DNA from: Dictyostelium discoideum
Lineage: Eukaryota
Direction of reading: 5' to 3'
DNA length: 64,000 bases
Assembly: GCA_000004695.1 (NCBI GenBank)
Contig: CM000150.2
Span: 3,712,001 to 3,776,000 of the forward strand
Shown in pieces: positions 2,765 through 50,900 of this stretch (within the stretch, counting starts at the first letter, position 1; each line of letters opens with the position of its first letter). Under the pieces are notes generated by a model. The model did not search any database, was not told the DNA's origin, and saw only the letters and a program-made list of their open reading frames with translations. Both the position numbers and the translations under genes were made by a program.

Positions 2765-5700
2765 TAATTACCTTTGTAGTTGAAAATAAAGTAACTGATA
2801 ATGAAATTGAAGTTTCAACATTTGGTTTTAATTCAATAGATTGAAAAGGTGAACTTGTTATTGAACTATCATCACCTTCTGGGAATAAAAATAATGCATA
2901 TAATGGTTCACTTAACTTATTTTTAAAAGTGATAGTATCATGACAAACTTCACCAAGATCGGATTTTCTACCATTCATTCCAAAATCACAAATATATGGT
3001 GATACTGATACAGGTAAATCTGGATCATTACAATGTTGGAATATTGTATCTGCAATTAAAACATGTGTTTGAGTATTGGTTCTATATTTACCACTTTGTC
3101 CATTTCTATTTTTATAAGTTTTTAAATAATGTTCTAATGGTATTTCATTGGTAACAGGGTCAAGTAAAATATCAATAATATTTAAAGGATTTTCAATAAA
3201 ATCACCATGAGCTAATGATGGAACTAAATGAGGACTTGGTATTTTACTTTTTTTATACTCGAAAAATTCTTGATCAAAAGTATTTCTTTCAAATTGTCTA
3301 ACAAATAATTCACCCTCTGCTTCAATTTTAATATTTCCACCTCGTATAATATTAATATAATCTTCAACATCATCTTCATTTAATTCTGCACCATCACTTG
3401 AATCATCATATTCATCACTATAATCTTCAAAAAATGGTTCATTATTATTTATAATTGGTTTAATTTCTAAATTTTCCATTTCTAATGTTACATTTGTTTG
3501 TAATATTGCTCCTGCTGCTGTTGTTGTTGTTGTTGTTGTTGTTTCTACTGTGGTTGGTTCTAAATTATTATTTTCTGATTGTGTTTGAATATCAGAATTT
3601 CTATTTACTGTTATTGATATATGATTTGATGATGATTGTTCTTGATTTGAATTTATAATTAATGGTGTTGATGGTACTGGTGATTTATTATTTGATGGTT
3701 TCTTTGAATATAGTTCAACACCAAAAACAGCTATTTCAAGTCTTCTTCTTTTTTTATGTTTATAATATCTGGCACCAAAGAATACAATTAATATGGATAA
3801 TAAAACAAGTACTGTAACACAAATTGGAACAATTATTGGTAATAGATTTATTTTTTCAACTGGTATTGGATATTCAATTACAAGTGATGAATAAATTGCC
3901 ATTGATGTTAAGTATGTATTACCTCTTGTTGCAAATGAAATATTTATATTTTCCAATGAGTTGATATTATCGAAATTGAATGTTAAATTTTTGAAAATTG
4001 GTGCTGAATTACTCTCTAATGGTTCCAATAAGAATACTGGTTGATTTTCAATATAAATTGATAATGGTGTTGGTTGATCATCAATTGGTTGATGTATAAA
4101 AAATAATTGAATTTGATAATACTTTGTTTCACTATCAATTCTTGTTGTTATAGTTACTAATTCATTTGAATTAATTGATGTTATACCATTTAAAAATAAT
4201 TCATTAAGGTCATTTGATATATTTAATTTTGGTAAATTTGTTATATATTTTATATTATTTGAAATTGTACAATTATTGCTATTATCATTACTACTAATAC
4301 TACAACCTTTTTTGAATGAATTACCATCAACTGAAATTATTCCATTTTCAGTTGAGTTTTCCATTGACCAACCTGAATAAAATGAATAATTACTAAATAT
4401 TGTAATCTTTGGAAAATTGATAATATACATTATTTCTGAATCTCCTACATTCTTTAATTTCACTGTTACTTTTAAATTTACTGAACCATCATTTTTAAAT
4501 GTTAATGGAAATTTACACTCTTTATTTACACTCTCTGATATAGCAGATGATGTTATTGTTTCATTATCTGATTCGAGTTCACAAGTAATACGACTAATTA
4601 CTGGTGATATTATTACAAGTTTTACTATTAAATCTAATTTTCCACCAACTGGTATTTGATATTGTGAAGTTGGAAAAATGGAATCTACTAGAATAAATTC
4701 ATCAACATTTAAAAGTTCATAGAGGTATGGCACAATCGAAGAACCATAGATTTGATTATTTTGAAGTTGAAAATCATCGATATAAAAGCTTGAGTTTTTA
4801 ATTATGACAGCTGATGATTTAATACCATTATCACCTAATGATGGTGTTGTTGATGAACCAAAAAATGAATCATAAATATCCAACCTTTTAACTTGACCTG
4901 TCAATTTAAAATTATTAACACCAATAATATTTTTTAAAACTAAACCACTTCCTTTTAAATTTACAATGATTTTAGAAGAAATAGTTGAATCTTTAATTGT
5001 AAAAAAAGTATTCTTTAATTCTTCATCACTATTAACTATTAAAAAGTAATCTACTGGATTAATTGAAATTGGATTTACTAAGTTTTTACTAAAATCGATT
5101 GGCTCTTGTGAAAGACTTGGAACAACTATTGAATTAATATCGCATGGAGCGAAGCAATCTTTATCGAAACCTGTAACATTCTCTCTTGATATGAAATTAA
5201 AATTGTATAAAATTTTTTGGCCATTGAATATATCATTAGTTGAGAATATGTTTGGCGAAAGTGAATAGATACCATTGCCTTCATGTCCATAATCCATAAA
5301 TGCTGGTGATGTAGGAAATTCATTTGGTAAAACTAATGAGAAATAATTATTTGATGATTCTATATATTCTGTACCATACTGAGCAATCATACTTGAACCT
5401 GCTGTGCCCACTATTAAATTACCTGATATATTAACATTTGATTGAAAAAATACTAAAGATGATCTCGACGAACCAGTGTTTCCAATGATTACACTATTCT
5501 TTATTGTTACACTATTTGAAAACTCTATATATAGTGAGTTTCTAAATCTTTGATTTTTACCAATTATTATATCTGTCACATTATTTGGATTATCTGATGA
5601 GAAGGTTAGCTTTGTATCATCATATTCTTTATTTGAAGTTTTACCAATTGAATCAAGTAAGTAGTTTTCAATATGTAGTTTAGTATCACCTGTTATATAA

Positions 5701-6689
5701 ATTGATGATTTAGTTCTAGTTGATATTCCTCCAAACTTTAAAGAACCTGAATCATTGAAAAATAATTTTATATTTAGATCTGTTGTTGGTATTGTTAAAT
5801 CTTGCATCTCTAGTTTATTTTTGTTATAGGTAAATCTTGAAGTTCTAACATTTGGAAATGAGTCGCTAACTATAGATACATTGAATCCATTGAATGGATC
5901 TAATGTTGATATATCATTTACCTCTAGTACATTATCTTCTATCGGTTTAGCTGAATACAATATTCTTTGAGATCCAATAAGAGATATGGAACCACCTAAA
6001 CTAAGGATACCTGGGAGAAACCCAAAAGGATCAATTTTGATTATAGTTGAAGAAAGGTCAACAAATTGTAGCACGCAATTATTACAATGAAAATTACCAC
6101 CAGGCAAAACGATTATACCTCCTAAGGTAAGTGTTTGTTGTGATCCAGCTGTGAAACTACCTTCTATACATAGGATATTTATATATGATGGATGAATTGA
6201 CAAAAGAGGGTCTAAAGTCATGTTAGATCCTATAAATTAAGAGAAAAGAAATTGAATGATGTTAATAATTTATTTAGGTTTTAAAGAGTTATAGTATTTA
6301 AATAATATAATACCTTTTGTAATTTTAATATTTGCTTTTAAAAAAGGGCTTCCCGGGAAATTGTCTATGGAAAATTCGTTTGAATTTTTATTTTTTAATG
6401 CACTGTCGCATATATCGGGATAATATAATTCATGTGGCTCTACATTGACACTGTTTGCTTTTGTTGGTATTTTTGAAAAATTTTCAAACTTATTTATTCG
6501 ATATAAGTTATAGTAACCATCGGGTGTATAAACAAAACTACCTGTTTAATAAACAAAAAAAAAAAAAAAAAATTTTGTTGGTTACTGTTAAAGTATAAAT
6601 AAAATAATAAATTTGATCATACCTATAGAAAAAGTATTATTTATTGAAAATATTATTAATATTAATAAAATATATAAAATATAATTCAT
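1353..6689 (-). CDS. Receptor-like TKL-group protein kinase: signal peptide, large G8-like/parallel beta-helix ectodomain, one transmembrane helix, then a cytoplasmic kinase domain with a poly-Asn tail. About 1637 aa. Resembles the Dictyostelium GDT (growth-differentiation transition) family
   Basis: Six exons on the minus strand: 6689..6623 ([23 protein letters not shown], a signal peptide), 6541..6314, 6229..2772, 2666..2260, 2188..2040 and 1957..1353. Donors are GTATGA, GTATTA, GTAATT, GTAAGT and GTATGT; all acceptors are AG; the total is 4914 nt, which is 1638 codons. The ectodomain carries Gly-rich G8-like motifs ([26 protein letters not shown]...[20 protein letters not shown]) and beta-helix repeats ([30 protein letters not shown]...). 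The transmembrane helix is [23 protein letters not shown] followed by a KHKKRRR stop-transfer signal. The kinase domain has GTFGIVYRG (Gly loop), [17 protein letters not shown], and an APE-like YMSNE. The C-terminus is about 60 Asn encoded by (AAT)n. Confidence 0.75.
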
Positions 6690-7538: not shown

Positions 7539-10500
7539 GTATGCATTGGTTTATAATATTCTTTGATTATTTTTATTAATAATTTTGTAATTTTTTAATT
7601 TTAATTTTTTAATATTTTCTTTAAAACAGATTCTAATTCTCAAGATCTTTATACCTTTGATTGGAATGCCCCAAGAGTGAATATAAATGGCCATCCTCAT
7701 TTTAAAGTAAATTATTATCCAGGAACTACAAATTCAAATTATAAAGGTGATTTTTATCCGGATTTAGAGTCAAATCCAACAATTAAGAAATATACGTTCT
7801 CTAATAACTGTACTTTAACTGCTTCAACAGATTATAGTACAGCAGGTTTGTTTACCACACCTATGAACACAGTTGATAATCCTTTTGGAACTATTACAGA
7901 TATCAACACAACCCTTATTGTCCCCTTTGGAGTTACTGTAACTTTTTCAGGAAGAGTTGAATTGATTCCATCTTTGTTAATTAAAGGTAGAGTTGTTCTT
8001 GAGCCAAGTGTTGCTAATTCTTATTATTTTGTTATGAAAACAATTATTTTCCCAACTGGTGTATTTGAATCAATTCCAATAGCAACTTCCAACCATACTG
8101 TATTTTTACAAGGTGCATACAGCACATCACCTTTTATATGGGATCCACTTTATACTTCTTCTTTTTTATGTCTTGGAGGTACTGTTTCTCTAAAAGGGTT
8201 TAATAGTGAATCGGTATGGACTGGTAGAAATAGTTCTTATTCATCATATGGTGGATCTTTCTTAAGAACACCCTTTATCTATAACAATACAGGAGCACCA
8301 ATTTTTAGAATGGCATCCACTGGAAGAGATTCAAGTAATAATAATAATTATGTGATAAACAATTATTATACTGGGTACAGAGCAGGGGGTTCAAATGGTT
8401 TTATATCTGATAGTGCATCATTCAATGGTGGAGGATATCTTCTTGTAAACCCATGGAATAAAAATCTTTGGATTAGTGGTTCTAAATTATCGTCGATGGT
8501 ATTCACATTAAACTCGAATGTTAATATCCAAAATTGTGTATTATTTGATTTAGGTCACACAAAAGGTGATATTTTGGATGATAACATTCTTGACTCAAAT
8601 AATATGGTAACCCACACCGGGACAAATTTACCAGATAGATACCCTATTACACTCCTACACAATACTAAAGCAGTTACCATCAGTAATAATTTCTTTCATC
8701 ATGGATTTACTTTTGGTGGAACTCAAGCCTCTATTCCAAGATCATTTATTGGTGTAAAACGTTCTTTTGGCACTATCTCGGGTAATGCGTTTGCATTGAA
8801 ATCTAGTATAAGTGGTATTTCTTTATTACATGGTACTGAACAATTTGAAATTAGTTATAATGCCTTCTTATCCGTATATTCTGATACAACAGATATATCA
8901 TCATATAGAGCATATCCTGATATAGATTATTTAAATGGTGGTATCATTACAACTTCACCTTACTCAACTTATGAAGGAAATGCATTTGAAGGTAATTTTA
9001 AAGGTGGTGCTTTTCAAGTAATCCCAATTCAAAGTAGATCATCTGCTACAGGTTTATCATCTGATATTTTAATTGGTGCATATGTTGGTTTAACACAAGA
9101 TAATACAGCTGATTATAAAACAAATAATGTTTGGAATAATGTTGAATATAAAAATAATTTTTTTGCTGGCGAAGCAGAATTTCGTTTTAGATATTCATTT
9201 ACAAGTCTACCAACAATTAAAGTAAATATGAAGTTTGGATGGTATATTGGTCAAAGAGTATCACAAAGACTTGGAACGACTGGTAATCAAGCAAACATTG
9301 AACTTTGCTATGATTCGCCATATATTGCAAGCACTCTATCTATTGGTGATAATTTCTATATTACTACTTCCAATTCACATAATGGAAAGTATAATGCTGT
9401 TTCAATGGTTAATTCGCTTGCAACTTCAACATATAAATACTTTGCAGAAACATTTACTTCAAATTACCTTTCAATCAAAGATTCCAAGTTTTCCCATTTT
9501 GCAGCATCACCCTCAACGTTCCTTAAAAATTATGCAACTCAATTATATTTTTCAAATGTGAATGGAACAAAGCTCAATATTGGATTTGCAATAAATTCAT
9601 TCCAACCTCTTTATAATTTATCACCAATTAGTACTGATGTTTCTTCAAACAGAATCAACGTATCATTTATTCCAAATTTCGACTTTTCATACTCTGATGG
9701 TCAAAAAGTTGATTATATTGTTGATGGAAATGTTCAATCTACATTAAGTTTTTCGTTGGATCCAAACAAAGCATTGAAATACAATGAAGTTCTATTTCCA
9801 AAAGCAAATGGTGTTTATTCAGTTTTGATTTCATCAGTTCAAAACATTCCAACATTTATCTCTCCATATGGGCCATATTTTGCAAACTCATACATAATAG
9901 ACTCGACTGCTATAAACTTTTATCTTGGTATCGATTTAACTTCAGATATTAGTTCATCAGCTACTGCTCTTTCAATTTTTGGTAATTCATGGACAAAATG
10001 TGGTTGGGTTAGCTCAATTTGTAAAACAACAGGCAAATTCAGTAAGGTATCTCCGACACCATCTACAGTAACTGAATCAGTTACTGGAGCGGTCAGAAGC
10101 ATAGCAAATGAAGTATCAATGCTAACTTCATATTTAGCTAATGATGATACATTAGGAATTAAAAGTTCAGTTAACATCACATTACCATCAGGTTCATCAT
10201 TCAAGTTTTTCATTTATTCATATAATGCGGATTACACTGGTGCTAATATCGTAAACTCCCTTCCATTATTCACAATCAAAATTAATGGTAAATATCAAGA
10301 ACCATATTCAAGACCTTCTTCAACCTACCAACAATACAAAAAGTATGGTCCATTCTTTTATAATACTGACTCAACTGATACCAAATTAATTATTGAATGG
10401 GCATCAGATAATATAAAATACTCAATACCAATTTGTGGTATTGAAATTTTCTCAAATATTTCATCACCTTTAGTTATTCCTACTCCAACACCATCATCAG

Positions 10501-16334: not shown

Positions 16335-16925
16335 ATAAAAATAGATTTTATTTTTATTTTGATTGAATCCAATTTGATAAATCTTGATTAAAAGCTTTGA
16401 ACCAATTTGAATTAATTGTAACCATTTCTAAATCTTGTTTAATTGAACGATCAGCAATTGGAACTGGATGATCTTTGAAAAAGTTGACGACTTCATTGTA
16501 TTGAGAATCATCCATTTTAGAGGTGAGACAACTACCAATGATACGACCAAACAAAGGAGAGTTATTAAAGGTTTCATCGATTTGATTAAAGTTTTTGGTA
16601 AAGTAAGCCCAAGCGAATTGACGAACACGATTTGGAAGGGTAAAGAAAACCATATAACTATCTTGACTTCTAACGGATGGAGATAAAGCGAAATTGAGGG
16701 CTTTTTCAACCAATTCCTCTTTTGGAGCCAAAGCAAGTACCAAAAGGTAAGAATTCTTTTCAGCAACTAAAGAAGATTTAAGATATTGATCAATGATGAT
16801 TTGTTGATCAGCTTCACCACCATTCTTTACGATTGTAGCAAGTACTGTAGAACGAATATCTGATGGTAAACTTGAAGAGTCTGCTTTGAAAGCTTCGAAT
16901 CTTTTCTTACATTCAGCAACGATCT
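16335..16925 (-). pseudogene. Inverted partial duplicate (gene fragment) of the last roughly 590 bp of the M1 aminopeptidase gene, including its stop codon and 14 bp of its 3' flank
   Basis: The reverse complement of 16335-16925 matches 21513-22100 almost base for base. The encoded peptide ...KRFEAFKADSSSLPSDIRSTVLATIVKNGGEADQQIIIDQYLKSSLVAEKNSYLLVLALAPKEELVEKALNFALSPSVRSQDSYMVFFTLPNRVRQFAWAYFTKNFNQIDETFNNSPLFGRIIGSCLTSKMDDSQYNEVVNFFKDHPVPIADRSIKQDLEMVTINSNWFKAFNQDLSNWIQSK* differs from the parent at only a few residues (F/L, D/N, N/K). There is no upstream exon or start codon. Similarity ends abruptly at 16925 on one side and shortly after the stop codon on the other. Confidence 0.8.
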
Positions 16926-20229: not shown

Positions 20230-22083
20230 TAATCATATTCTTCTTAATAATAATATGTTAATTCCTTTAATAATATATAATGATACCATTACCAATCACC
20301 ATCACCATAGGACTTCTCCTTTGGAGCTATGGAAAACTGGGGTTTAATTACTTATCGTGAATCAATTTTATTAACATCAGATAAAACTACTCTTCGTACT
20401 AAACAAAGAATTGCTAATGTAATTGGTCATGAATTAGCACATCAATGGTTTGGTAATTTAGTAACAATGGAATGGTGGAGTCAATTATGGTTAAATGAAG
20501 GTTTTGCAACATTTATGGGATATTTATCAACTCATCATTTATTCCCAGAATGGGAAGTTTGGAATGATTTCTCTGATTGTTATAGAAATGGTGCACTTCG
20601 TTTAGATGCTTTAGAGAATTCACATGCAATTGAAGTACCAGTACGTCTTTCGTCTCAAATTTCAGAAATTTTTGATGCCATTTCTTATAACAAAGGTTCA
20701 TGTGTAATTCAAATGTTAGAGAGTCGTTTCGGTGAATCATTTAGAAAAGGTCTTCATCATTATTTGGATACTCATTCCTATAAGAATACCAATACCGATG
20801 ATCTTTGGGCTTCAATTTCATTGATTAGTGGTGTTGATGTTAAATCATTCATTGATTCATTCACAAAGTATCCAGGTTATCCAGTAGTTTCATTCACTCC
20901 AACTTCAACTGAAGGTACCTTTGAATTATCTCAAAAGAAATTTAGATTACAAGGTTCTGAGAAATCTGATGATCCAATTTGGAATTGTTTCATTAGATTC
21001 CAAACTGGTAATGCTGGTCAACATGAATTCATCTTGGAGAAGAAATCCGATACCGTAACAATTCCAAACTTTAAAAATGGTGATTGGATTAAACCAAACT
21101 ATGGTCAAACTGGTTATTTCCGTATTGCCTACTCACCTGAAACTATCAAAGCATTGGTTCCAAAGATTAAATCAATGGAAATTCCAACTCCAGATCGTTT
21201 AGGTTTATTATCAGATGTTTTCAATCTTTGCAAGGCACACACTTCTTCCATCTCTGCCTATATGGATTTAGTTTTGGCTTTTGAAGATGAAAAGGAAAGT
21301 AATGTTTGGGATTTCATTATCGATAGTCTTGGTTCTATTCAAACTTTAATTGAAGATCAACCATACTCAAGTAGATTCAATGAAATCTTTGTTCAACTTT
21401 TGAAACCACTTTCAAAACGTTTAGGTTTCGAGCCAACCAAAGGTGAACCATCTTCAGATACCTTGTTAAGAGATAAAGTAAACACTAAATTGGGTATGTT
21501 GGGTGATGCTGATATCGTTGCTGAATGTAAGAAAAGATTCGAAGCTTTCAAAGCAGACTCTTCAAGTTTACCATCAGATATTCGTTCTACAGTACTTGCT
21601 ACAATCGTAAAGAATGGTGGTGAAGCTGATCAACAAATCATCATTGATCAATATCTTAAATCTTCTTTAGTCGCTGAAAAGAATTCTTACCTTTTGGTAC
21701 TTGCTTTGGCTCCAAAAGAGGAATTGGTTGAAAAAGCCCTCAATTTCGCTTTATCTCCATCCGTTAGAAGTCAAGATAGTTATATGGTTTTCTTTACCCT
21801 CCCAAATCGTGTTCGTCAATTCGCTTGGGCTTACCTCACCAAAAACTTTAATCAAATCAACGAAACATTTAAAAACTCTCCTTTGTTTGGTCGTATCATT
21901 GGTAGTTGTCTCACCTCTAAAATGGATGATTCTCAATACAATGAAGTCGTCAACTTTTTCAAAGATCATCCAGTTCCAATTGCTGATCGTTCAATTAAAC
22001 AAGATTTAGAAATGGTTACAATTAATTCAAATTGGTTCAAAGCTTTTAATCAAGATTTATCAAATTGGATTCAATCAAAATAA
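19263..22083 (+). CDS. M1-family zinc aminopeptidase (puromycin-sensitive aminopeptidase-like), about 856 aa
   Basis: Three exons: 19263..19828 (donor GTAAGT), 19922..20153 (donor GTACGT) and 20311..22083; total 2571 nt. Motifs: GFYRS, FEATDARRAFPCFDEP, MSTYIVAFIVGEF, the GAMENWGLITYRE exopeptidase motif, and the HELAHQWFGNLVTMEWW...LWLNEGFA zinc-binding site (HEXXH-18-E). There is an alternative in-frame upstream start codon at 19170 (MKKINLISIIIFIISLVYFNF...) that would add a hydrophobic N-terminus; which start is used is unresolved. Confidence 0.85.
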
Positions 22084-22306
22084 AAATAAAATCTCTTACA
22101 ATGAAAGATCTTTGTTTTAATAATTGATAGTGATAAAAAAAAATGAGACGAAAACTAAAATAAACATCAAATTATTGTTTTCCTTTTTAAAACACAAATT
22201 TTATTTTTTTAAATTTATTGTTTTGGTTAAAAAAAAAATTGCTTTTTTTTTTTGTTTTTGCGTTCATCCAGAAGTATAGATTTATTTTTGGTAACATATG
22301 AATGTA

Positions 22307-22341
<35 letters not shown>

Positions 22342-22476
22342 TTATTCATTTATAAAAAAAAAAAAAATAATATTTAAAAAATGAAAAATTTTATGTTTTT
22401 TTTTTTTTTTGTGCAACAATTCTGTTTTTTAGGACTTGTTTCGTTAAATTAAAAAATAATATAAAAAAATTAGAAA

Positions 22477-22916
22477 ATGAGTGAAAATAATAAAAATAAT
22501 AATGATAATGTAAAACCATTAAATGAAATGACAAAAGAGGAAAGAACCAATTATAGTTTAAGAAGAGCACCTGATTATCATGGTAAAGAGGAAAGTGTTT
22601 TAAATAGCTCAAGAACTAAATGTTGGGAAGCAAGAGATAAATATTTTAAATGTTTAGATGATAATAAAGAAGATGATTCAAAATGTAAAGCATTTTATAA
22701 TGAATTAAATAATTCATGTTTAAAGAGTTGGGTAAGAATTTTTTTCAATTTTTAAAATATAAAAAGTTAATCTTTTTATTAAAATAAATAAATCTCAAAA
22801 TCAATTACTAATCTTTTTTTTTTTTTTCTTTTTTTTTGTATCAATACAAAATAACAGAGCGAATATTTTATTAAAAAAAGAATATCAGATAAAAATAAAG
22901 AAGCATTTTTAAATAG
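22477..22916 (+). CDS. Cytochrome c oxidase assembly factor 6 (COA6) homologue, a twin Cx9C/Cx10C CHCH protein of about 107 aa
   Basis: Exons 22477..22731 (donor GTAAGA) and 22848..22916 (acceptor AACAG). The peptide ...CWEARDKYFKCLDDNKEDDSKCKAFYNELNNSCLKSW/SEYFIKKRISDKNKEAFLNRKD* matches the COA6 core CWGARDEYWKCLDEN...CKKLRSSFESSCPQQWIKYFDKRR. Confidence 0.7.
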
Positions 22917-23333
22917 AAAAGATTAAATATAAAAAAGTATAATATAATATAATATAAAATAAAAAAAAAAAAAAGATCAACCACAACTTTTAGTGGTTTT
23001 TAAACATGTAATTATTTCAAAAATTTATTTATTTATTTATTTATTTATTCTTTTTTTTATTTATTAAGTTGAATTTGTAATTTAGGTTATTTTGAATAAA
23101 ATTATTATAAAGTTTCAAGTTTACAAATGTATATTTGTGATATATAATAGATTATGTTTTTTAAATTGATCAATCCAGATTTTAATTTTTGGGGGTATGA
23201 TTTTTGGGAGGGGGGTATTTTTTTTTTCGAAAAAGATATTATTTTTTTTTTTTAATCAAATTTATTATTATAATAATTATTAATTAAAATTTTTAAATAA
23301 TAATTTATAATTATAATTTTTTTTTTAATTAAT

Positions 23334-23939
23334 TTACATTATTATACAATTTTTTTTAAATTTTTTATTATTTTTCTTTTTTTCTTTTGATTGACATTTT
23401 TGATGAGCTTCACAAGCGTCAATTGCTTTTTCAAATACTAAATGTAAATTCTTTTGTGTTAGTGCACTACATTCCACAAAATCAAATGCATTAATTTTCT
23501 TTGAAAGTTCAATACCTTGTTGAGTTGAAATTGGTAATTGTTTTTTTTCACATAGTCTATCCAGTATAACTGAATTTGATTTTAAATCCATTTGAGTACC
23601 AACTAAAACTATTGGAGTATTTGGACAATTTTCATTTAATTCTTGTACCCATGAATCTAAAATATTTGAAAATGATGATGGATTTATAAGTGAAAAACAT
23701 AATAAAAATACATCAGTTTGAGGATAACTTAACCTTCTTAATTTACTAAACTCTTCTTGACCTGCAGTATCCCACAATGATAAATTATATGGTTTTTTAT
23801 TATGCATTAATAAAGTTGAATAGTTATCAAATACTGTTGGTTGATATTCATTTGAAATTGAATTTGATGTATAACTTAATAACATTGATGTTTTACCAAT
23901 TCCACCTTCGCCAACAACACAAACTTTAATACTTTTCAT
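23334..23939 (-). CDS. Rho/Rac-family small GTPase (201 aa) with a C-terminal CaaX box (CIIM)
   Basis: A single exon. The peptide [24 protein letters not shown]...WDTAGQEEF...LVGTQMDL...ECSALTQ... has a polybasic stretch before CIIM. The P-loop reads GEGGIGKT rather than the usual GDGAVGKT, so it is a divergent Rac paralogue. Confidence 0.85.
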
Positions 23940-24783
23940 TTTTTAATCGATTAATTATTTTACTATAATAAATAAAATAAAAATAATAATAAATATAAAA
24001 TAAATTTGTTTATTTATTTATTTATTTATTATTTTTTTATTTTTTGTAAAAAAAAAAAAAAAATAATAACAAAATTATTTTATTAATAATTTAAAAACAA
24101 TTAATTAAAATTTTAATATAAAATAATTTTAAAAAAATAAAATAAAATAAAAAAAAACAAATAATAAAATAAAAAAAAAAATAATTACATTTTAAAAATG
24201 TGGGGGTATTTATTATTTATTTGTTTTTATTAAATTTTCCAAATTAACAATAAAATTAATATCACAACTAATTTATAGTAATTTATTTTATCTCTTTTTA
24301 TTTATTTTGATAATATGATTATATTAAATTTTTTTTATTTTATTTTTTTATTCCAAAAATTATTCTTTTTTTTTTTTTTTTTATTATTTAAACACACACA
24401 ATATTTCTCTGAAAAAAATTCAAACACAATAAATTTGAAATATTTGTTTTTTTTTTTTTTACCATTCAACTTTACACCAACTTCAAAAATTTGTTTTTTT
24501 TAACTTCCTTTAGCAAACACATAACTGAGTAGTCTTTTTTATTTTTAACTTTAATTTATAATAATAAAAATAAAAAAAAAAATAAAAAAAAAATAAAAAA
24601 ATAAAAATAAAAATAAAAATAAAAATAAAAATAAAAAAAAAATAAAAGGATACAATATAGAATTACATTTATACAAAAAGTTTATTATTACTATAATTTT
24701 ATTTATTTTTTTTTTTTCTTTTTTTTCTATCGCTTTTTTTTTTTTTTTTATTAATATTATTATTTACTATTAAAATTTGAATT

Positions 24784-25308
24784 TTATGAACAAGTTGATT
24801 TTTCAGAATTATTTGAAGGCATTGGTTTACCACAACCACCACCACAACAAGTAGTTGGTTGTTCATCATCAATTTGAATCTTTCCTCTCTTTTTTCTTTG
24901 TGGTGGTTGATCATTTACAAATTCATATTGTTGGTATGACTTTGTATTTTCATCAAATTTAAGTTCTAAATTTATTATAAAGTAAAATAAACATTAATAT
25001 AATGTTTGGGTTTTTTTTTTTTTTTTTTTATTTTTATTCTTCTAAACTAATTTAAAAAAAAACATACGAATGGTTTTTTCATCTTTTCTAACACCTTGAA
25101 TTAAATCTTTAACTAAAAAATGAGAGACAGCATTTGCATGATCTATCATTTCATTAATTTTTGTATTATCTGTTTCATTTTTATTATCTCTAAATTGAAC
25201 TCTTGTTAAATTGATTACATGTTCAAGTGCTCTTTTATCATTTTGAAATACCTTTTTCTCTGTTCTTAATAAACCTAAATAGCTAGATAAAACTTTTGCT
25301 CTATTCAT
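24784..25308 (-). CDS. LYR-motif protein 7 (LYRM7/MZM1 homologue; a complex III Rieske-protein assembly chaperone), about 140 aa
   Basis: Exons 25308..25068 (donor GTATGT, phase 1) and 24965..24784 (acceptor TTTAG). The peptide MNRAKVLSSYLGLLRTEKKVFQNDKRALEHVINLTRVQFRDNKNETDNTKINEMIDHANAVSHFLVKDLIQGVRKDEKTIR... aligns with human LYRM7 ([69 protein letters not shown]). The phase of the second exon is less certain. Confidence 0.6.
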
Positions 25309-25737
25309 TATTACAATAATATACTTTCGGCTGTTTTTTTTTTGAAAATGAAAAAAAATAAAAAAAAAAATTAAAAAAAATTTAAATATTGAAATAAAAA
25401 AAAAAAATAAAATAAAAAATAAAATTAAAAAAAACAAAAAATCCAATTTTCCCATTTTTAGGATGATTTTTATTTTCATTTTTAAAAAAGATAATTTTCT
25501 TAATTCGAAATAAAAAAAACAAATAAAATAAAATAAAATAAAATTACCCTTACACAATAAAAAAATATAAGATTAGATAAAATAAAATAAAAAAAAACAA
25601 CAAATAAATCAAATTTCCCATTTTAAGGAAATGATTTTTATTTTTATTTTTATTTTTATTTTTATTCAAAACAAATGATTTTCATTTGAAAAAAAATGAA
25701 AAAAATAAAAAAAAAAAAATAATAATAAAAATTATTA

Positions 25738-27165
25738 TTAATTATTATTAGAAAAAACTAAATTACCTTTTTTAAATACATGGGAAATTGGTGGATCAAC
25801 CATTTCATAAATGATATGTTCCCATTTATCAGCAGATAATATAACAAAATCAGCAAATTTACCAACTTCTAGTGAACCATGAGTTGAAGATTTATTGATT
25901 GAGGCAGCAGCATTTAAGGTGGCAGCAACTAAAGATTCGTTCATATTCATTTTCATGAGTACACACGCTAAATTCATAACAAAAGGCATTGATAAACAAT
26001 GAGCATTTGGATTGAAATCACTTCCCAATGCGACTGGTACACCTAATTCAATCATTCTTCTAGCGGGTGGACATTCCAATCTTAAGATGTAAGCTGTGGT
26101 TGGTAAAAGTACAGCAAAGGTTGGAGTGGCAGCCATTGCCTTCATACCATCTTCACTAACCTTCTCAAGATGACTAATTGCCCTGCAACCCAACTCACCT
26201 GCCAATTCACCAGATTTCATATAGGATAATTCATCGCCATGGAAATTGCACTCCAATCCAATATCTTTACCAGCTTGAAGGATACGTTTAGTGTCTTCAT
26301 ACTCAAAGAAACCTTTCTCAAGGAAGACATCGATATTAGCTGGCGATATTTCCCCAGCGTCTTTTAATCTCTTCAATTCTGGTATCTGTTTATTGATGAT
26401 GTCGTCGGTGGCCTCGGATGCATTCATACCCTTTGGGATTGCATGGCCGCCTAAATAGGTGGACACGATTTCAACACCTTGAAATTGTTTAGATGCTCTA
26501 TCTAACACTTTCAACATTTTCATCTCGGTTTCAGTCTCTAATCCATACCCACTCTTTGCTTCAATCAATGTTGTACCATTCTTTAACATTCTATTCAATC
26601 TTGGTATTAAAAGTTGATAAAGTTCATCCTCTGTACTATTTTTAGTATGTGAAATAGTGAATTGAATACCACCACCTGCTTTATGAACATCTAAATAGGT
26701 TGCTCCTGCTAATTTCATTGCAAATTCATGAACACGATCACCACTAAATACTGGATGTGTATGTCCATCAACAAATCCTGGTAATACAGATTTTCCTGTA
26801 CAATCTAAAACTTTTTCAAAACTTTTATCTTTATATTTCTCTTCCATTTCTTTAAATGTACCAATATCAAAAATAATACCATTTTCATCAATAATCATTG
26901 TACCATTTTCAATAATTTCAATCTAAAAATTTTAGATTTAATTGAAAATAATAATAATAATAATAATAATAATTTATTATAGTAGTAAAAAAAATTAATA
27001 AATTGGTTTTTTTTTTTTTAAATTTTTTTTTTTTTTTTTTATATTTATATTTATATTTATTTATCATACATTACTCATTTCTTTACCAATTAAAAATGGT
27101 TTACCTTTTGAAATCACAACTAATTGTGATGCATTTGAAATTTTTAATTTAAAATCGAATCCCAT
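25738..27165 (-). CDS. hutI: Imidazolonepropionase (HutI / AMDHD1-like amidohydrolase; the third step of histidine degradation), about 426 aa
   Basis: Exons 27165..27070 (MGFDFKLKISNASQLVVISKGKPFLIGKEMSN, donor GTATGA) and 26922..25738. Motifs: PGFVDGHTHPVF, AGGGIQFT, HGDELS, and the C-terminal GSDFNPN...VFKKGNLV. Confidence 0.85.
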
Positions 27166-27249
27166 TTTTTTAAATTTATCTGTTTAGTTGTTTAAATGAA
27201 AATTAGAAAAAAAAATGAAAATGAAAATTTAAAAAAAAAAAAAACAAAA

Positions 27250-27289
<40 letters not shown>

Positions 27290-27519: not shown

Positions 27520-28260
27520 CACTCAAAAATACACAAAATGATATAATAATGGTATTAAAATGTGAAATTTTCTTTGCTGTGATAAAAAATAATAAAAAAA
27601 AGTATGACCTATTAATTTTTATTATTGTTTTTTAAATAAACCTTAAGCTGTACTTATTAAGAAAGGCTGTTCCAGTGCTGTTTTTCGGCTAAATTTAATT
27701 CTCTTCTTTTTAGGTAGGTTACCAAAATCCTATTCTTTTACTTTTTTTTAAAAAATATACTATTGAATATTGTATTGGTAGATTAATAATACAGCACAGC
27801 AAAGAAAATCCAGCATTAAAATGACATTTAAAATAAAATGTAATTTAAATGATATTTTTAATATCATTTAAATACCATTAAAAATTAAATGATATTTTTA
27901 ATATCATTTAAATACCATTAAAAATCAAATGTCATTTAAATTTTATTTAAATGATATTATAATTAATAATATAGTTAAAATATAATTAGTAATATAATTA
28001 ATAATATAATTTAAATTACATTTACCATTAAAATGATCATTAAAATGAAAATTAATATTAATATTTTAAATGATATTATATTGTTAATTTTTATATAATT
28101 TAAAATTTAATTAGTAATAAAATTAATAATATAATTTAAATTACATTTACCATTAAAATGACAATTAAAATGAAATTTTAAGGGAAATTTAAAGTTAAAT
28201 TAAAAATTTCATTATTAAGAATATTTAAATGTTAACAAATTTGTTCTAAATTGTTTCATT
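27520..28260. repeat. Copy of an unnamed interspersed repeat with internal direct sub-repeats; the same element occurs inverted at 45790-46740
   Basis: The block 27600-27830 (gtatgacctattaattttt...ggctgttccagtgctgttt...ggtaggttaccaaaatcctattctttt...cagcacagcaaagaaaatccagcattaaaatgacatttaaaataaaatgtaatttaaatgatat...) is the reverse complement of 46240-46420 and 46640-46720. Internal sub-repeats (aaatgatatttttaatatcatttaaataccattaaaaat, twice) are shared. Confidence 0.7.
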
Positions 28261-28758: not shown

Positions 28759-30851
28759 TAAGCTTGAGATTGTTTATCATCATTATTATTATGATTATTT
28801 AATATTGAAGATGGTTGTTTATCTATTGAAGATGACTCAATTTCATTTGAGTTTGAATTTGAGTTTGATTGATCAATCTTTTTTAAAGAGATTGATTGAC
28901 CTCTTGTTTTTCTAGTTTCCCTTGTTTTTTCTCCACTTGATCCTGATGAATTTGATGAAGTACTTGATTTTTTACTTGGTACTGGAGTATTTCCCCATTT
29001 GATACCAACTAAATGTAATAAATAGTTGAATCTTTCAGACTCTCTATAAATAGTTGCAATATGAGGATCAATACCTAACCCAAATAAAAGAAGTATACCA
29101 ATAATTGACATACAAAAAGCATTCATATATCTAAGACCAAATCTTGAAAATTGAATTCTTGGACATTGATCATTTCCTTTTTCTAATAAACAATATACCC
29201 ATTTTTCAATTGCATCATAAAATACTTCACCATTATACGATACATATAATGGATACATTGATGTAAATGAAATACAAAATAAAATTACTAATAAAAATGT
29301 AACTGATCTTAACTTTAATAAATAAATAAAATTAATAAAAATTAATAATTCTATATATATAATACACAAAAATTTTAATTTAAAATTAATACTTACATTT
29401 AAAAATAAAATTCTTCTATCATTTATTGATTTAAATAAAACAGTCATTTTAAATACTTTATATATTGATGATGTAATAAAAATAACCATTAAAAATGTTA
29501 CAATATATGCTGGTACTATAATTATAATTTTTTAAAAAAATTTAAAAATTTTAGTAATGTTAATTTAATTTTAAAAAATAAATAATTAATACATACTATA
29601 AAAACAAAAATATAACCAAAACCTATTATTATATTCACCAATCCAACAACCTGCACTATCAATAGTAGATTCATAATGTTTTATTGGTAATAAAGCAAAG
29701 AAAAAAATTAATGCCCAAACTCCAATTGATGTTTGTAAAAAGTATTTATTTGTTTCTAAAATTAAAAAAAATAAAAAAAATAAAAAAAAAATTAGATAAT
29801 TATTAATTTACTATTATTTTTATTAATTTTTAAAAAATTTATACTTACTCATATTAATAGTTAAAAAGAAATCAAATGAATAAAGTGATAACATAAATAT
29901 AGTACCTAAACCACCCATTTGAAAAAAAAAACCAGTTAACATACAATTACCATCTTGACTACTACGATATCTACCAGGTTGTGATGAACATCTAAAATCA
30001 CCATTACCATATTGTTGAGTTGCATAACTTGCACATAATGCTAAAACTGTAAATCCCAAATAAATGATAATCCAACTACGATGTGTAATTTTATTTTGAA
30101 TTAAACCAAATGTAAGAATTAAATAAACTGCAATTGTTGCAGATACACAATAAAATACAACTTCAGTATAAAATTTTGCATCATATTGTTTGTCTGTATA
30201 AACATATAATGGACAAGGTAAAACACAATTTGGCATTACTTCATGAAACTTTTCACCATTTTTTATATCATCTGTTGAAACATAAACCAATGGATAAACA
30301 CATGAAACTGTGGTATTGGTTGATCCTTGATTTGGATTTGAACATTGAATTGATTGATTTGAAGAACCACCATAACTTGTTAAATTATAATAATTCTCTG
30401 TAATTGGGTAAAGATCCTTACCATCGGTATCATTTTGTTGACATGAAAAACCTTGGAAAAATGAAAGAAAAGGTACACATGTTTCTAAAACTTTAAAACA
30501 ATTCTTTTGACATGGATTCGATGGTAAAGGGAATGAAATACCATTTATATTACTATTACATTCTCTATAGGTTGAAATACAAAATAATTTAATTATATTC
30601 TCTTTACAAATTAAATCTGGAATTGCACTAAATCCCATTGGATTTGTTAAAGTTGCTGTAACATTTGCTTCAATAATTTCTTGAGTATATCCATATGGTA
30701 AATAAATATTTTTATAACCTAAATAATTTGAACACATTGAAATTGGATTTAATATTTCACATTTTGATCCAATATCTAAACTATTTACAAATAATTTTTT
30801 TAAAAAAAAAAATTTTAAAAAAATTAAAAGAATTTTCATTTTCATTTTCAT
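28758..30851 (-). CDS. Frizzled/smoothened-like 7TM receptor (Fsl family): signal peptide, Frizzled-type cysteine-rich domain, seven transmembrane helices and a Ser-rich cytoplasmic tail; about 611 aa
   Basis: Four exons on the minus strand: 30851..29849 (donor GTAAGT), 29755..29597 (donor GTATGT), 29515..29397 (donor GTAAGT), and approximately 29312..28758. The last acceptor is uncertain by one nucleotide: the six-frame track reads through this 84-85-nt intron in frame, whereas my own count of the printed bases gives 85. The cysteine-rich domain is [16 protein letters not shown]...[22 protein letters not shown]...[16 protein letters not shown]...FSC; seven hydrophobic helices follow. Confidence 0.7.
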
Positions 30852-41939: not shown

Positions 41940-42165
41940 CTATTAACAAAATAATTTTTTTTCATCAAACAATTAATGATATTAGTAGAAAATTAATATC
42001 TATCTTTTTTTAATTTATTTATTTTTATTTATTTATTTATTTTTTATCTTTATAACTAATTTCAATAATAATAAATTTATTTAAATTTTTAATATTTTTA
42101 ATTATTCAATACACTTTTTTTAAATTTTTAATAATTTTAAATTTTTAATATTTTTATTAATATCG

Positions 42166-42480
42166 ATTACATTGTAGTTGGTGGCGTCCATGCTGAGTAT
42201 GCAATAAGGGTAATGCTTTCAATTCTTGGCATTGAATTTGATGAAATTAAGAACAAACATCAAATGAAAATAATTAGAACCAAATTTCAAAAAATAATGG
42301 TTCAATTAAAATAATTATTTTTTATTTTACCAATCATCCCTCAGACACACACAGGGATCCAATAGTTGATATTATTAAATTTAGATTATTGATAGAATAC
42401 TTTAATAATAATTATAATAATAATAATGATAATAATATAATAGAATTTGATCATTCACTAATGAAACATTACTTTGGAGA
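42166..42480 (+). pseudogene. Fragment (copy 1) of a dispersed degenerate paralogue family (VVGG-HAEYAIRV ... FYF-HPSD...DPIVDIIKF-LLVEY...)
   Basis: About 90% identical to 50082-50400. It starts abruptly at gattacattgtagttggtggcgtccatgc and ends ...NNIIEFDHSLMKHYFGEA*. Relative to copy 2 it has a frameshift at caaaaaataatgg. Confidence 0.6.
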
Positions 42481-42834
42481 AGCTTAATGTCATTGGAATG
42501 ATATTTATATCACAGCATAAAAAAAAAAAAAAAATAATAAAAAATAAAAAAAATTAAATAAAATAAAAAAAAAATATAATTTTAAAATCTCTAACCTTTA
42601 CTCTTTACTTTGGGTTTTCAAAAAAATGTATATGGGTGTGAAGTTCGAATAGTTTTAATTCTTTATTTAATCAATATCTTAAATTAATTTAAGGTACATA
42701 ATTAAAATAAATTTAATAAATAATAAATAATTATTTAACTTTAATTATTTTTTTTATTTACTACTATTTTTTATTTTAATTTTATTATTATTATTCTTTT
42801 TATTTGATCGAGTCCGATGATTCAATTAATTATC

Positions 42835-43273
42835 TTGATTCTTCACATGTTAATCCTTTTGTTAGACTAAGATCATATACATTTGAGAAATTGCCATTTA
42901 AATAAACTTGACCACCAGTTACTATAAATTTAAAGTTTTACAATATATACCAATTGCAATATCATTACAAATACAATTACCAACGTGATCATTACATTTA
43001 TCAAATGGTGAATATTCGACTGAACAAGGAGCTCTATAATAAAATTCAATATATTAATGTTGCACCATTTCCATCTTATAATTTAATTTGTTGATTACCT
43101 TAACCTGCACCTATTGTACATATGATTTGTGGTTTATTACTTGAGTGACAATCAGTGGTGGTGATGTTATAATGTCTTGTGATTTTAATATTATAAATAT
43201 TTGAAAAATCACAAGACATTATAACATCACCACCACTGATTGTTGGTATTGATACTGATGATATTTGCATTTA
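42835..43273 (-). CDS. Candidate small Cys-rich protein gene (about 113 aa, three putative exons) that contains a 90-bp perfect palindrome in its first exon
   Basis: The minus strand reads ATG(43273) MQISSSVSIPTISGGDVIMSCDFSNIYNIKITRHYNITTTDCHSSNKPQIICTIGA, then a weak GTTAAG donor, then APCSVEYSPFDKCNDHVGNCICNDIAIG, a GTATAT donor, then VTGGQVYLNGNFSNVYDLSLTKGLTCEESR*. It has ten or more Cys and ordinary amino-acid composition, unlike the surrounding DNA. No signal peptide was found, and the splice sites are weak. Confidence 0.3.
43151..43240. repeat. A 90-bp perfect palindrome: 36-nt arms around an 18-nt spacer that is itself palindromic
   Basis: atcagtggtggtgatgttataatgtcttgtgatttt / aatattataaatatttga / aaaatcacaagacattataacatcaccaccactgat. 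The arms are exact reverse complements. Confidence 0.9.
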
Positions 43274-43289
43274 ATTGTTGATGTTGTTA

Positions 43290-43830
43290 TGTTGATGTGT
43301 ATAATAATGTTGTTAATGTTGTTGATGTATATTTATTTTATTTGGTGAGGTTGTAGTATGTTGATGTTGTTGGCGTTGTTGATGTTGTTGATGTTGTTGA
43401 TGTTGTTGATGTTGTTGATTTTGTTGATGTTGTTGATGTTGTTGGTGTTGTGGATTTTGTTGATTTTGTTGATGTTGTTGATTTTGTTGATGTTGTTGGT
43501 GTTGTTGATGTTGTTGATGTAATATATATATTGGTTATTATTTTATTTTATTTTATTTTATTGTTGTTGATGTTGTTGATGTTGTATATATATATTGGTT
43601 ATTATTTTATTTTATTTTATTTTATTTTATTTTATTTTATTTTATTTTATTTTATTTTATTTTATTTTATTTTATTTTATTTTGGTGTTGTTGATGTTGA
43701 TGTTGTTGATGTTGTATATATATATATATTGGTTATTATTTTATTTTATTTTATATTATTTTATTTTATTTTATTTTATTTTATTTTATTTTATTTTATT
43801 TTATTTTATTATATATATTACTATTATTTT
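43290..43830. repeat. Minisatellite blocks: (GTTGAT/GTTGTT)n alternating with (TTTTA)n arrays
   Basis: Read directly in the sequence. The ORFs 43450..43836 and 43595..43849 on the track are artefacts of these repeats. Confidence 0.85.
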
Positions 43831-44454
43831 ATTTAATTTTTTTATTTAATTTACATTTTGTACTATATAAAATGAGTTGACATAATATTCTAAAAGAGAA
43901 TACTAATTTTGTAAAAATTTATTTATATTAATTATTGAATATCCTATTATTTATTTATATTATATTTATTATTACTATGAAGAATTGAGTAACTAATTTT
44001 GGAAGAACCTCTTGGTCATTTATCCTCACCCTCGTTATTAATAATTTTTTTTTTTATAATTTTTTTTTTTATTATTTTCTTTTTTTTTTTTTTTTTGTAA
44101 TTGACCAATTTCCGAACCCATATTGAAATAAAATATAATCAAAAAAATAAAAAAATAAAAAAAATGTGCAAAGTGATTTATTATTTTAATTTAAAAAATA
44201 AAATAAAATAAAATAAAAATAATTAAACAAAAAATAAAAATGAATAATAAAAAATATTACATACATTCTGGTTTTTATTTTTTTGCAAAGTCGCAAACAA
44301 TATTTATATTTTCTTACCAAAAGTTAAAATAAATAAATTTATTAAACTAAGATTAAATATTCTTTATTTTTTAAATACATTAAAAAAAAATAAAAAAATT
44401 GTAATGTTTTTATAGTTTTTTTTATTAATGTTTTTTTTTTATTTTTATTTTTTA

Positions 44455-45789: not shown

Positions 45790-46740
45790 CGGGATAATAC
45801 CTAAAAGAAGAGAATTAAATTTAGCCAGAAGATTTATTAAAAAAAATAATAATAATTAATAAGTCATACTTTTTTTTTCATTATTTATGTTAGTAATACA
45901 TTGGCTCACAGCAAAGAAAATATCACATTTTCAATACCATAAAAATTAAAATTCTTTTTTACTGTAACATTTAATTTTCTTAAAAATGAAATTTTTAATT
46001 TTTAATTTACTTTAAAGTTTCATTTTAATGGTCATTTTAATGGTAAATGTAATTTAAATTATATTATTAATTATATTACTAATTATAATTTAACTAATAT
46101 TAATTATAATATCATTTAAATAACATTTAAATGACATTTAATTTTTAATGGTATTTAAATGATATTAAAAATATCATTTAAATTACATTTTATTTTAAAT
46201 GTCATTTTAATGCTGGATTTTCTTTGCTGTGCTGTATTATTAATCTACCAATACAATATTCAATAGTATATTTTTTAAAAAAAAGTAAAAGAATAGGATT
46301 TTGGTAACCTACCTAAAAAGAAGAGAATTAAATTTAACCAGAACGCGCTGGAACAGCCTTTCTTAATAAGTACAGCTAAAGGTTTATTTAAAAAACAATA
46401 ATAAAAATTAATAGGTCATACTTTTTTTTATTATTTTTTATCACAGCAAAGAAAATTTCACATTTTAATACCATTTAAATTACATTTAAATGTTCCAGTG
46501 AAAATGAAATTTAAATCTAGTTTAAAGTTTCATTTTAATGGTCATTTTAATGGTAAATGTAATTTAAATAATATTAATTACAATTTAAATGACATTTAAT
46601 TTTTAATGGTATTTAAATGATATTAAAACCATTTAAACTGCATTTTATTTTAAATGTCATTTTAATGCTGGATTTTCTTTGCTGTTCTGCATTATTTAAT
46701 CTACCAATACAATATTAAATAGTTTATTTTTTTTTTAAAA
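45790..46740. repeat. Two tandem copies, inverted relative to 27520-28260, of the unnamed interspersed repeat
   Basis: The units run approximately 45830-46330 and 46380-46740. Each contains cacagcaaagaaaat(a/t)tcacatttt...tttcattttaatggtcattttaatggtaaatgtaatttaaat...gctggattttctttgctgt(g/t)ctg(t/c)attat and ggtaacctacctaaaaagaagagaattaaatttaaccagaacgcgctggaacagcctttcttaataagtacagc. Confidence 0.7.
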
Positions 46741-47692: not shown

Positions 47693-47757
47693 TTGTTTTT
47701 TTATAAGGTTGGATATAAAAATTTGAAATTTTTATATCCAACCTTATAAAATAACAA
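47693..47757. repeat. A 53-bp near-perfect palindrome (hairpin) centred on a single G
   Basis: ttataaggttggatataaaaattt g aaatttttatatccaaccttataa. The arms are exact reverse complements. A comparatively GC-rich 70-nt stretch follows it (ctaaagtgcgctggttggttagcaatggcctcg...). Confidence 0.85.
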
Positions 47758-49699: not shown

Positions 49700-50900
49700 T
49701 TTCCATTCATAAGAGAAATGTGCAAAAACTTCATTTCAAATCTTAAATCCAAAACCTTTTCAACATTTTCATCTATCTTTGGTTATTTTCAAAATAATAA
49801 AAATAATAATAATAATAATAATAATAAATTAATATTAGTATACCAAATACCAAAAAGTACAAAGAATATACTTTTAGATAATAATGGTAGACAAGCATTC
49901 ACCATAAAATATTTTTTTCAATTTCTATAAATATATTGGTGATGTATATGATAGAGAAAACACAATCATAAGTCATTTATTAATTTTCATTCACAAATCA
50001 ATTTCTGGTGTTCATGAACCTATCAATGGTAACCATTTATATATTTTAATAATTGCTTTTTTATTTATAATTTAATTTTGCAGACGATTACGTTGTAGTT
50101 GGTGGCGTCCATGCCGAGTATGCAATAAGGGTAATTCTTTCAATTCTTGGCATTGAATTTGATGAAATTAAGAACAATCATCAAATGAAAATTATTAGAA
50201 CTAAATTTCAAAAAAATAATGGTTCAATTAAAATAATTATTTTTTATTTTACCAATCATCCCTCAGACACACACAGGGATCCAATAGTTGATATTATTAA
50301 ATTTATATTATTGGTAGAATACTTTAATAATAATAATTGCAATAATAATAATATTATTATAAAATTAGATCAATCACTGTTGAAATCATTTATCAAAAAT
50401 TATCAAATTTTGTTCAAAAACCAAGTAGTGGTTGTGTGATGATTTAATAAATCATATTAATTTTACTGATAATGATGAATGCAATCATAGTTTCGTATAT
50501 TCACCAATCATCAATTTTAACATTTTCGAATCAATTTTAAAACCAACAGATTCAAAAATAACAAGTATTGATGATTCAACTTCCAGTGATTACCAATTTT
50601 AAAAAATGGAATTTTTAAAATTTCATTCAATAATATTATAACTTCAATTAAAACAACTTCAAGCAAATCACCGTCAACTAAATGGAATAACAAAGCAATC
50701 AAATATCACCCAAATAATGAAACAAAGCTTGCTACCAATGCTATATCTAGCATTTGAATATTTAGCAACTTTTATTTCGCCATTTTGGTCTGTCGAAAGA
50801 TCTTTCGACAAATTAAAAGGGCAAAACAAAAGTTATCAACTATTCAAAGAATAGACATAGTATCGATGCAAATTTAACTTTAGTTGATCTTGTCAAATTA
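49700..50900 (+). pseudogene. Copy 2 of the dispersed degenerate paralogue family; it shows frameshifts and premature stops
   Basis: The ORFs 49718..49930 and 50185..50439 are in different frames. The stretch ...YIGDVYDRENTIISHLLIFIHKSISGVHEPING, an intron-like segment, then DYVVVGGVHAEYAIRVILSILGIEFDEIKNNHQMKIIRTKFQKNNGSIKIIIFYFTNHPSDTHRDPIVDIIKFILLVEYF... is collinear with copy 3 (55965-56500). Its 3' part (50440-50900) is a decayed equivalent of copy 3's Cys-rich and zinc-finger region. Confidence 0.6.

Follow-up and report, generated by a model that had tools for sequence, protein, structure and literature searches.

A 39-nt inverted copy in a decayed ComC-like gene fragment of Dictyostelium discoideum: the probable scar of a short-range template switch

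An inverted repeat within the annotated gene DDB_G0270976

The window, i.e. the whole 64 000-nt stretch of Dictyostelium discoideum DNA that was analysed, has a G+C content of ∼20% and carries typical Dictyostelium genes. A survey of ORFs in the interval 40.8–50.1 kb found no convincing ones between ∼40.9 and 50 kb, only low-complexity or short ones, and this part of the window is a mosaic of duplicated pieces. It includes DDB_G0270976, which is annotated on the minus strand and whose 112-aa product (P0001) is listed as a hypothetical protein by NCBI and UniProt; its exons are identical to those of an ORF model put forward in an earlier note on this DNA, which had also described a palindrome inside the ORF. 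An exceptional inverted repeat is indeed present there. When the match was extended outward from the spacer, however, the exact complementary arms proved to be 39 nt each (43148–43186 and 43205–43243) instead of 36 nt, and with the 18-nt spacer that separates them (43187–43204) the whole inverted repeat measures 96 bp. The segment 43151–43240, reported as a perfect 90-bp palindrome, breaks symmetry at 10 of its 90 positions, all located in the spacer. Nor is the spacer itself palindromic, as had been thought: its plus-strand sequence, AATATTATAAATATTTGA, contains only a mini-palindrome, AATATT-TAT-AATATT, in which a 6+6-nt AATATT/AATATT stem with a 3-nt loop is displaced by a bulge of three nucleotides, TCA in minus-strand letters. 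In the same orientation, the arm at 43205–43243 is ACAATCAGTGGTGGTGATGTTATAATGTCTTGTGATTTT, a relic of IPT/TIG coding sequence (..TISGGDVIMSCDF), and the arm at 43148–43186 is translated in the gene model as KITRHYNITTTDC. The repeat lies inside a minus-strand open frame, and the translations previously quoted for the two arms (..SGGDVIMSCDF and KITRHYNITTTD) are correct.

In the predicted hairpin a 3-nt bulge separates the 39-bp stem from one of 6 bp, which is capped by a 3-nt loop; the fold energy is −46.5 kcal/mol (z = −17) as DNA and −64.5 kcal/mol (z = −14.4) as RNA. When the window was simulated 60 times with its dinucleotide composition preserved (first-order Markov) and spacers of up to 300 nt were allowed, the longest exact inverted repeat reached 14–19 nt, as against the 39 nt observed. 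The only long inverted repeats in the window with arms that are not of low complexity are 43148–43243 and a second one at 47699–47751. The latter consists of 26-nt arms (TTTTATAAGGTTGGATATAAAAATTT) around a single central G and is thus an almost perfect 53-bp palindrome; the two are 4.5 kb apart within one gene-poor, lineage-specific stretch, and the second was also found in the independent assembly GCA_054883475.1 (L002:18013).

A search with HMMER of 1.8 billion representative proteins returned 10 relatives of the annotated protein, the closest of them from Dictyostelium. With phmmer it matched (E = 1.6e-16) an intact 668-aa protein of D. cf. discoideum (P0003), in which Pfam recognizes a ComC supersandwich domain (ComC_SSD), DUF7949, EGF_2 and TIG. 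When this protein was compared with the window by tblastn, its residues 65–213 were collinear with positions 43267–42860 of the minus strand (E = 4e-40), in two frames and with stops, so that ∼149 of the 668 residues, about 22%, are covered by the locus. The fragment of a ComC-like EGF/IPT-TIG membrane-protein gene which is annotated as DDB_G0270976 occupies 42804–43290 (minus strand), the outer limits being set by the start of 5′ homology in a DNA alignment (A3) and by a 60-nt, 95% match of ∼42804–42863 to a D. cf. discoideum copy (L011).

No intact ORF extends across the homologous region. An in-frame TAA stop at 43100–43102 (minus strand), where intact homologs have AAA or GAA (Lys or Glu), is common to the window and to a paralog on chromosome 2 (L001; see below); in the alignment this site reads GGTTAAGG in both of these, compared with GGTAAAGG or GGTGAAGG in the D. 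cf. discoideum copies. A second in-frame TAA (43076–43078, minus strand) is specific to the window, the paralog having TTA and the intact homolog Ser at this position, as is a frameshifting 2-nt deletion at 43046–43053 (minus strand; ATATAT--TGAATT vs ATATATGATGAATT). Relative to the intact homolog, there is a further deletion with a change of frame near 42925. The full architecture of the family is not retained either, the N-terminal part, the supersandwich domain, the transmembrane segment and the signal peptide all being absent from the locus, and where homologs have upstream EGF-coding sequence the window has a (ATCAACAAC)n microsatellite instead.

The two annotated introns of 73 nt (43104–43032) and 29 nt (42950–42922), both on the minus strand, correspond to coding sequence in the intact homolog. 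Since residues 45–233 of that protein are encoded by one uninterrupted exon, the introns are former coding sequence, and introns of 29 nt are shorter than the normal introns of Dictyostelium. The annotated ATG is fortuitous as well; it is out of the ancestral frame and lies within ancestral Leu-Asn-Ala codons. An automatic gene finder stitched together the 112-aa model with two artificial introns that step over stop codons and frameshifts, which was possible because the net change of −12 nt at the repeat (see below) happened to leave the frame intact. A Pfam scan of the three homologous pieces joined end to end, a 122-aa sequence not quite the same as the annotated 112-aa protein, gave nothing significant (only EGF_laminin, E = 1), and look-ups of the exact 112-aa product and of a 56-aa ORF in other assemblies and transcript contigs found nothing on record. 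Judged by its sequence, DDB_G0270976 is a decayed pseudogene fragment and its gene model an annotation artefact.

These results separate two parts of the earlier proposal of a small secreted or adhesion-type protein gene. The richness in Cys is real, but its source is a relic EGF-like module (..PCSVEYSPFDKCNDHVGNCICNDIAIGIYC..) and not a gene for a small protein; likewise, descent from a Cys-rich family with EGF-like and IPT/TIG modules agrees with the adhesion-type assignment, whereas neither a credible small secreted-protein gene nor a true coding exon is left. The earlier note had been prepared to call the ORF fortuitous in the absence of transcription and of any related protein; related proteins do exist, and the ORF model is largely fortuitous all the same.

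Ancestral and derived states of the repeat

Six related copies from three D. discoideum strains and D. cf. discoideum were compared. The window was aligned at the DNA level with the same-species paralog, two copies at one D. cf. discoideum locus (L011) and one at another (L012), making a five-way alignment, and two further copies (P0020 and P0022) were compared as proteins. The same-species paralog, P0002 (ACTFIT_004932, locus L001), is P0004 (DDB_G0277621) in AX4, on a contig that we take to be chromosome 2. As determined by blastn, the paralog shares with the window a segment of ∼1.2–1.5 kb (42469–44009), which comprises the pseudogene and the upstream (ATCAACAAC)n and (TTTTA)n microsatellites, and outside of which the two loci are non-syntenic. 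The long compound microsatellite itself, (ATCAACAAC)n on the minus strand plus (TTTTA)n, extends over 43275–43860 (L001:9566–9996 in the paralog), where it takes the place of the 5′ part of the ancestral gene.

The window and the paralog differ by 5.7% substitutions, except at the position of the arm 43148–43186. Here the paralog has 52 nt, GCACAAGTATTACAATTTGAATTGGTACTTCAATTTGTAATGATATTAATTT, and the window 40 nt, AAATCACAAG...CTGATTGTCA. The 52-nt version of the paralog, which bears no relation to the inverted copy, is also found in D. cf. discoideum (twice at L011, and at L012), where it encodes an IPT/TIG strand (..SSITISIGTSICNSIIF..), and the ancestral peptide is likewise encoded by P0020 and P0022 in two further D. 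discoideum strains; all six copies thus keep the ancestral stretch. Because the 52-nt version is shared by the other copies, the arm at 43205–43243 and the spacer must be ancestral and the arm at 43148–43186 derived. Consistent with this, the former arm, which is the exact complement of the latter, aligns with all paralogs and homologs, and the spacer is found in L001, L011 and L012. The derived arm is confined to the window copy, and all 39 of its 39 nt are the reverse complement of the source lying 18 nt upstream. The hairpin shares a run of 26 identical nucleotides with the chromosome-2 paralog.

On the minus strand, these alignments show, the ancestral letters of 43148–43186 were replaced by a reverse-complement copy of 43205–43243, 52 nt giving way to 40 nt (net −12 nt, with the frame kept), while the flanks remained collinear with 5–6% substitutions on each side. 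At the outer junction the dinucleotide CA (43146–43147, minus strand) comes neither from the copy nor from the ancestral sequence, the derived letters being ...CTGATTGT-CA-CTCAAG and the ancestral ones ...ATTAATTT-CTCAAG. The window is the sole copy in the alignment in which the ancestral segment has been exchanged for inverted neighbouring sequence. The comparison bears out the earlier suggestion that the gene sequence was disrupted by the repeat, the ancestral 52 nt having been overwritten. The repeat is lineage-specific, none of the other copies examined having the second arm.

The TAA at 43102–43100 has a bearing on the order of events. As it is common to the window and the paralog, the gene had already died when the inter-chromosomal duplication took place; the repeat, present in one copy alone, arose later still, and on the evidence of the alignment the shared stop can be taken as demonstrably older than the repeat. 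Exact identity of the arms is at best weak evidence of recency, for the probability that 39-nt arms as old as the duplication would stay identical (d = 0.057) is P ∼ 0.11. The statement that perfection implies a recent origin or active maintenance is therefore not statistically compelling, as neither is needed at the age of the duplication. Palindromes of this kind, with 39-bp arms and an 18-nt spacer, are also well under the sizes at which they turn strongly unstable.

Several features of the related loci were noted in passing. In the two further D. discoideum strains (L013 and L014; GCA_054859385.1 and GCA_054859355.1), a family fragment of ∼280 bp occupies another non-syntenic site, the third, flanked by an MIP aquaporin gene and a gene for 540–610 aa; it lacks the stop codons of the window and is fused in the annotation to unrelated downstream ORFs. 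In D. cf. discoideum (L011; GCA_054859235.1, near the contig end), an intact ComC-like gene (3001–6127) adjoins a DDE_Tnp_4 (PIF/Harbinger-type) transposase gene (1035–2482), and a second, partial and inverted copy of the ComC-like gene segment is found at ∼8577–8910. The 90% cluster of the intact ComC-like protein spans several contigs, suggesting a multi-copy, possibly subterminal family.

Orthologous sites were sought by synteny through a neighbouring 357-aa gene, which gave a near-identical assembly, a strain of ∼93% identity and two other species. At the loci around this gene, the pseudogene is absent from the syntenic site in L008, L009 and L010, and the loci of the divergent strain and the two species yielded nothing of the interval 42.0–46.6 kb beyond a single 93-nt match. 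In the ∼93% identical D. discoideum strain (L008, GCA_054859385.1) the syntenic site is without the pseudogene, and the interval 42.0–46.6 kb of the window is represented there by one 93-nt low-identity match; in addition, the block 22199–27263 is inverted, ∼2.6 kb past the end of the collinear block with the 357-aa gene. D. cf. discoideum and D. citrinum differ downstream of this gene too. The repeat thus lies in a rearrangement-prone, lineage-specific stretch, which would fit an origin in error-prone replication or repair.

Other duplications in the window were observed as well. A direct duplication of ∼355 bp and 88.6% identity (42119–42470 vs 50036–50390) involves part of a plus-strand gene (..DYIVVGGVHAEYAIRV..IEFDEIKNKHQMKIIRTKFQ..), and its 42.1-kb copy borders on the ComC-like pseudogene segment and resembles a further gene fragment. 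Two inverted sequences of 524 bp with 88.5% identity (27548–28071 vs 45998–46475) lie near breakpoints of structural difference from GCA_054859385.1. Finally, there is a 584-bp inverted duplication of 98.5% identity (16340–16923 vs 21514–22097), one copy of which overlaps the 3′ end of an M1 aminopeptidase-like gene (20329–22083).

Template switching and rival explanations

The repeat is very probably the mutational scar of a short-range template switch in an already dead ComC-like fragment, with no function indicated. This reading is favoured because a localized inverted copy of adjacent sequence between collinear flanks is the signature of such an event. Template switching is known to generate whole, perfect hairpins at one stroke and to lengthen quasi-palindromes or make them perfect (PMC10710096, PMC8794818, PMC7202029, PMC7954356, PMC8604942). 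The replication mechanism itself, its nucleation site and the absence of function are, in contrast to the replacement, inferred. In the proposed course of events, the EGF/IPT-TIG fragment would already have been dead, that is, 5′ truncated, with a TAA stop and internal deletions, when the ∼1.2–1.5 kb segment carrying it was duplicated between chromosomes 1 and 2. The chromosome-1 copy would then have undergone one short-range template switch during DNA synthesis, in which the growing strand folded back on itself or briefly jumped to the opposite strand, copied in reverse complement the ∼39 nt lying 18 nt upstream and returned to its original template, so that the ancestral 52 nt were overwritten by 40 new nucleotides. 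The fold-back was probably nucleated by a small ancestral quasi-palindrome, CTTGTG..AATATT-TAT-AATATT..CACAAG. The paralog L001, which at 5.7% divergence serves as a stand-in for the ancestor of the window copy, can already form a small hairpin by pairing of CTTGTG with CACAAG and of AATATT with AATATT, and this hairpin is a plausible nucleation site.

A single clean four-point switch starting from an L001-like ancestor was considered and rejected, since neither AATATT nor CACAAG priming gives the inner junction: the former predicts an extra TGA, which is absent from the window, and the latter predicts AG where AAAAT is observed. At the outer junction the 2 nt CA are untemplated. As the junctions are thus not explained by one clean switch, a second small event, either slippage or deletion, would be needed. 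The pairing CTTGTG..CACAAG is seen in the two D. discoideum paralogs only, and in D. cf. discoideum the alignment shows CTGGTG..(T/C)TCAAG; two substitutions raised the complementarity from 4/6 to 6/6, possibly by an earlier, smaller quasi-palindrome correction.

It might be argued that DDB_G0270976 is a genuine gene for a small Cys-rich secreted or adhesion protein with the palindrome in a true coding exon, given that the repeat lies within an open frame of 56 codons beginning with ATG, that the replacement kept the frame (net −12 nt) and that NCBI and UniProt list the model as a hypothetical protein. We regard this as very improbable. The locus is collinear with one exon of the 668-aa homolog but has two TAA stops, the 2-nt frameshift and deletions; both annotated introns, one of merely 29 nt, are coding in the homolog, and the ATG is out of frame within ancestral Leu-Asn-Ala codons. 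Moreover, signal peptide and transmembrane part are missing, ∼22% of the parent protein is covered, the Pfam scan gave no significant domain, and an exact product is not on record in the other assemblies. Conservation of the frame carries no selective meaning in any case, because stops were already present downstream. Fold-back chimeras do occur in sequencing libraries, and an assembly or cloning artefact of the reference genome would account for the repeat in this way, although nothing specific points to one at this locus. In the second D. discoideum assembly GCA_054883475.1 (locus L002), which was deposited separately and aligns to positions 29614–50781 of the window with 99.5% identity, the arms and spacer are identical and the spacing is unchanged (L002 13474 and 13531). 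With 3 mismatches and 16 gap openings over 21 kb relative to the window, this assembly is not a copy of the reference, and the inverted repeat is therefore real; being near-identical to the window, the second assembly bears on the question of an artefact and not on polymorphism among wild isolates. Cloning in E. coli, moreover, tends to delete hairpins and not to make them, and the probability of an artefact is negligible. Equally negligible is the probability that a miniature transposon or foldback element inserted into the gene fragment and supplied the arms as its terminal inverted repeats. In every homolog, one of the arms and all of the spacer are present as normal ancestral coding sequence, the 52 nt were replaced and no sequence was inserted, a target-site duplication is absent, and the second arm occurs in none of the other loci compared; these points outweigh the presence of family fragments at non-syntenic sites in different strains and next to a DDE_Tnp_4 transposase gene in D. 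cf. discoideum.

Young miRNA genes can form by inverted duplication of target-gene sequence, a model developed for plants. An inverted duplication of a gene-family fragment could similarly have created a young hairpin-RNA gene (a proto-miRNA or hairpin siRNA) here, whose minus-strand transcript would form the 39-bp perfect stem, be diced by DrnB and act on ComC-like transcripts such as that of the chromosome-2 paralog. The fold is stable enough for this (−64.5 kcal/mol, z = −14.4) and the 26-nt identity run with the paralog would provide a target; furthermore, new miRNA genes have been documented to arise from hairpins made by template switching (PMC10710096), and D. discoideum has a DrnB-dependent miRNA pathway (PMC6161686). 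Against this, the arms and the gene ID are absent from the supplement text, as far as it was accessible, of the miRNA surveys of D. discoideum and Amoebozoa (PMC6161686, PMC11014262), the close relatives found in the AX4 lineage are only other dead fragments, and the hairpin is not conserved, the pseudogene not being found at the syntenic site in the divergent strain and the two related species. No match to the ID DDB_G0270976 or to k-mers of the arms, in DNA or RNA spelling, was obtained in the indexed literature, and scans of the whole window with Rfam at gathering thresholds and with ARAGORN yielded no match and no tRNA genes, respectively. On balance, such a young hairpin-RNA gene seems highly improbable, and so does the reading in which the hairpin made by the template switch undergoes minus-strand transcription, e.g. 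by read-through from a residual promoter, and is diced to RNAs of ∼21 nt that silence ComC-like sequences. Were it nevertheless so, a proto-miRNA or hairpin siRNA would have been caught at birth in an amoebozoan, extending the template-switch model for the origin of miRNA genes beyond animals; small RNAs from this hairpin would represent the de novo birth of a hairpin RNA outside animals and plants.

Significance and comparison with known systems

On the template-switch reading, the inverted repeat is most likely one more case of a type of mutation already known, and an ordinary one, neither a new gene nor a device. The locus would then offer a clean case, open to dating, of a Dictyostelium template-switch mutation that is long (39 nt), with both states preserved among paralogs. 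It also illustrates that a single event of this type, combined with automatic gene finding, can yield a plausible-looking Cys-rich ORF, and that perfect arms need imply neither selection nor a very recent origin. We suggest that the annotation of DDB_G0270976, and probably that of its paralog DDB_G0277621 as well, be changed from hypothetical protein to pseudogene fragment.

Among known systems, the locus can be compared with young miRNA genes, with the ComC-like family and with template-switch mutations (TSMs). Like a young miRNA gene, it has a perfect hairpin derived from gene-family sequence and complementary to paralogs, but its perfect 39-bp stem resembles the precursor of an siRNA more than that of a miRNA. 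With the ComC-like family it shares 68–79% amino-acid identity to residues 65–213 of the 668-aa protein and the module order IPT/TIG, EGF-like, IPT/TIG (Pfam ComC_SSD PF22933, DUF7949, EGF_2 and TIG); it differs in being a fragment of ∼149 residues with stops, a frameshift and deletions, in which 52 nt of the first IPT/TIG module have been overwritten by an inverted copy. The resemblance to TSMs and quasi-palindrome-associated mutations, as described by the Ripley model and by the four-point model of Loytynoja and Goldman, lies in nearby sequence copied in inverted orientation over a stretch of similar length, in the collinear flanks, in a perfect hairpin made in one step, in the location of the event within (former) coding sequence, as in the yeast cases, and perhaps also in a small prior imperfect inverted repeat at the switch region. 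In contrast to these, the junctions at the present locus require an extra 3-nt slippage or deletion and 2 untemplated nucleotides, and the host is a pseudogene in an extremely AT-rich amoebozoan genome. It is our impression that, among TSM events, a copy of 39 nt stands at the long end.
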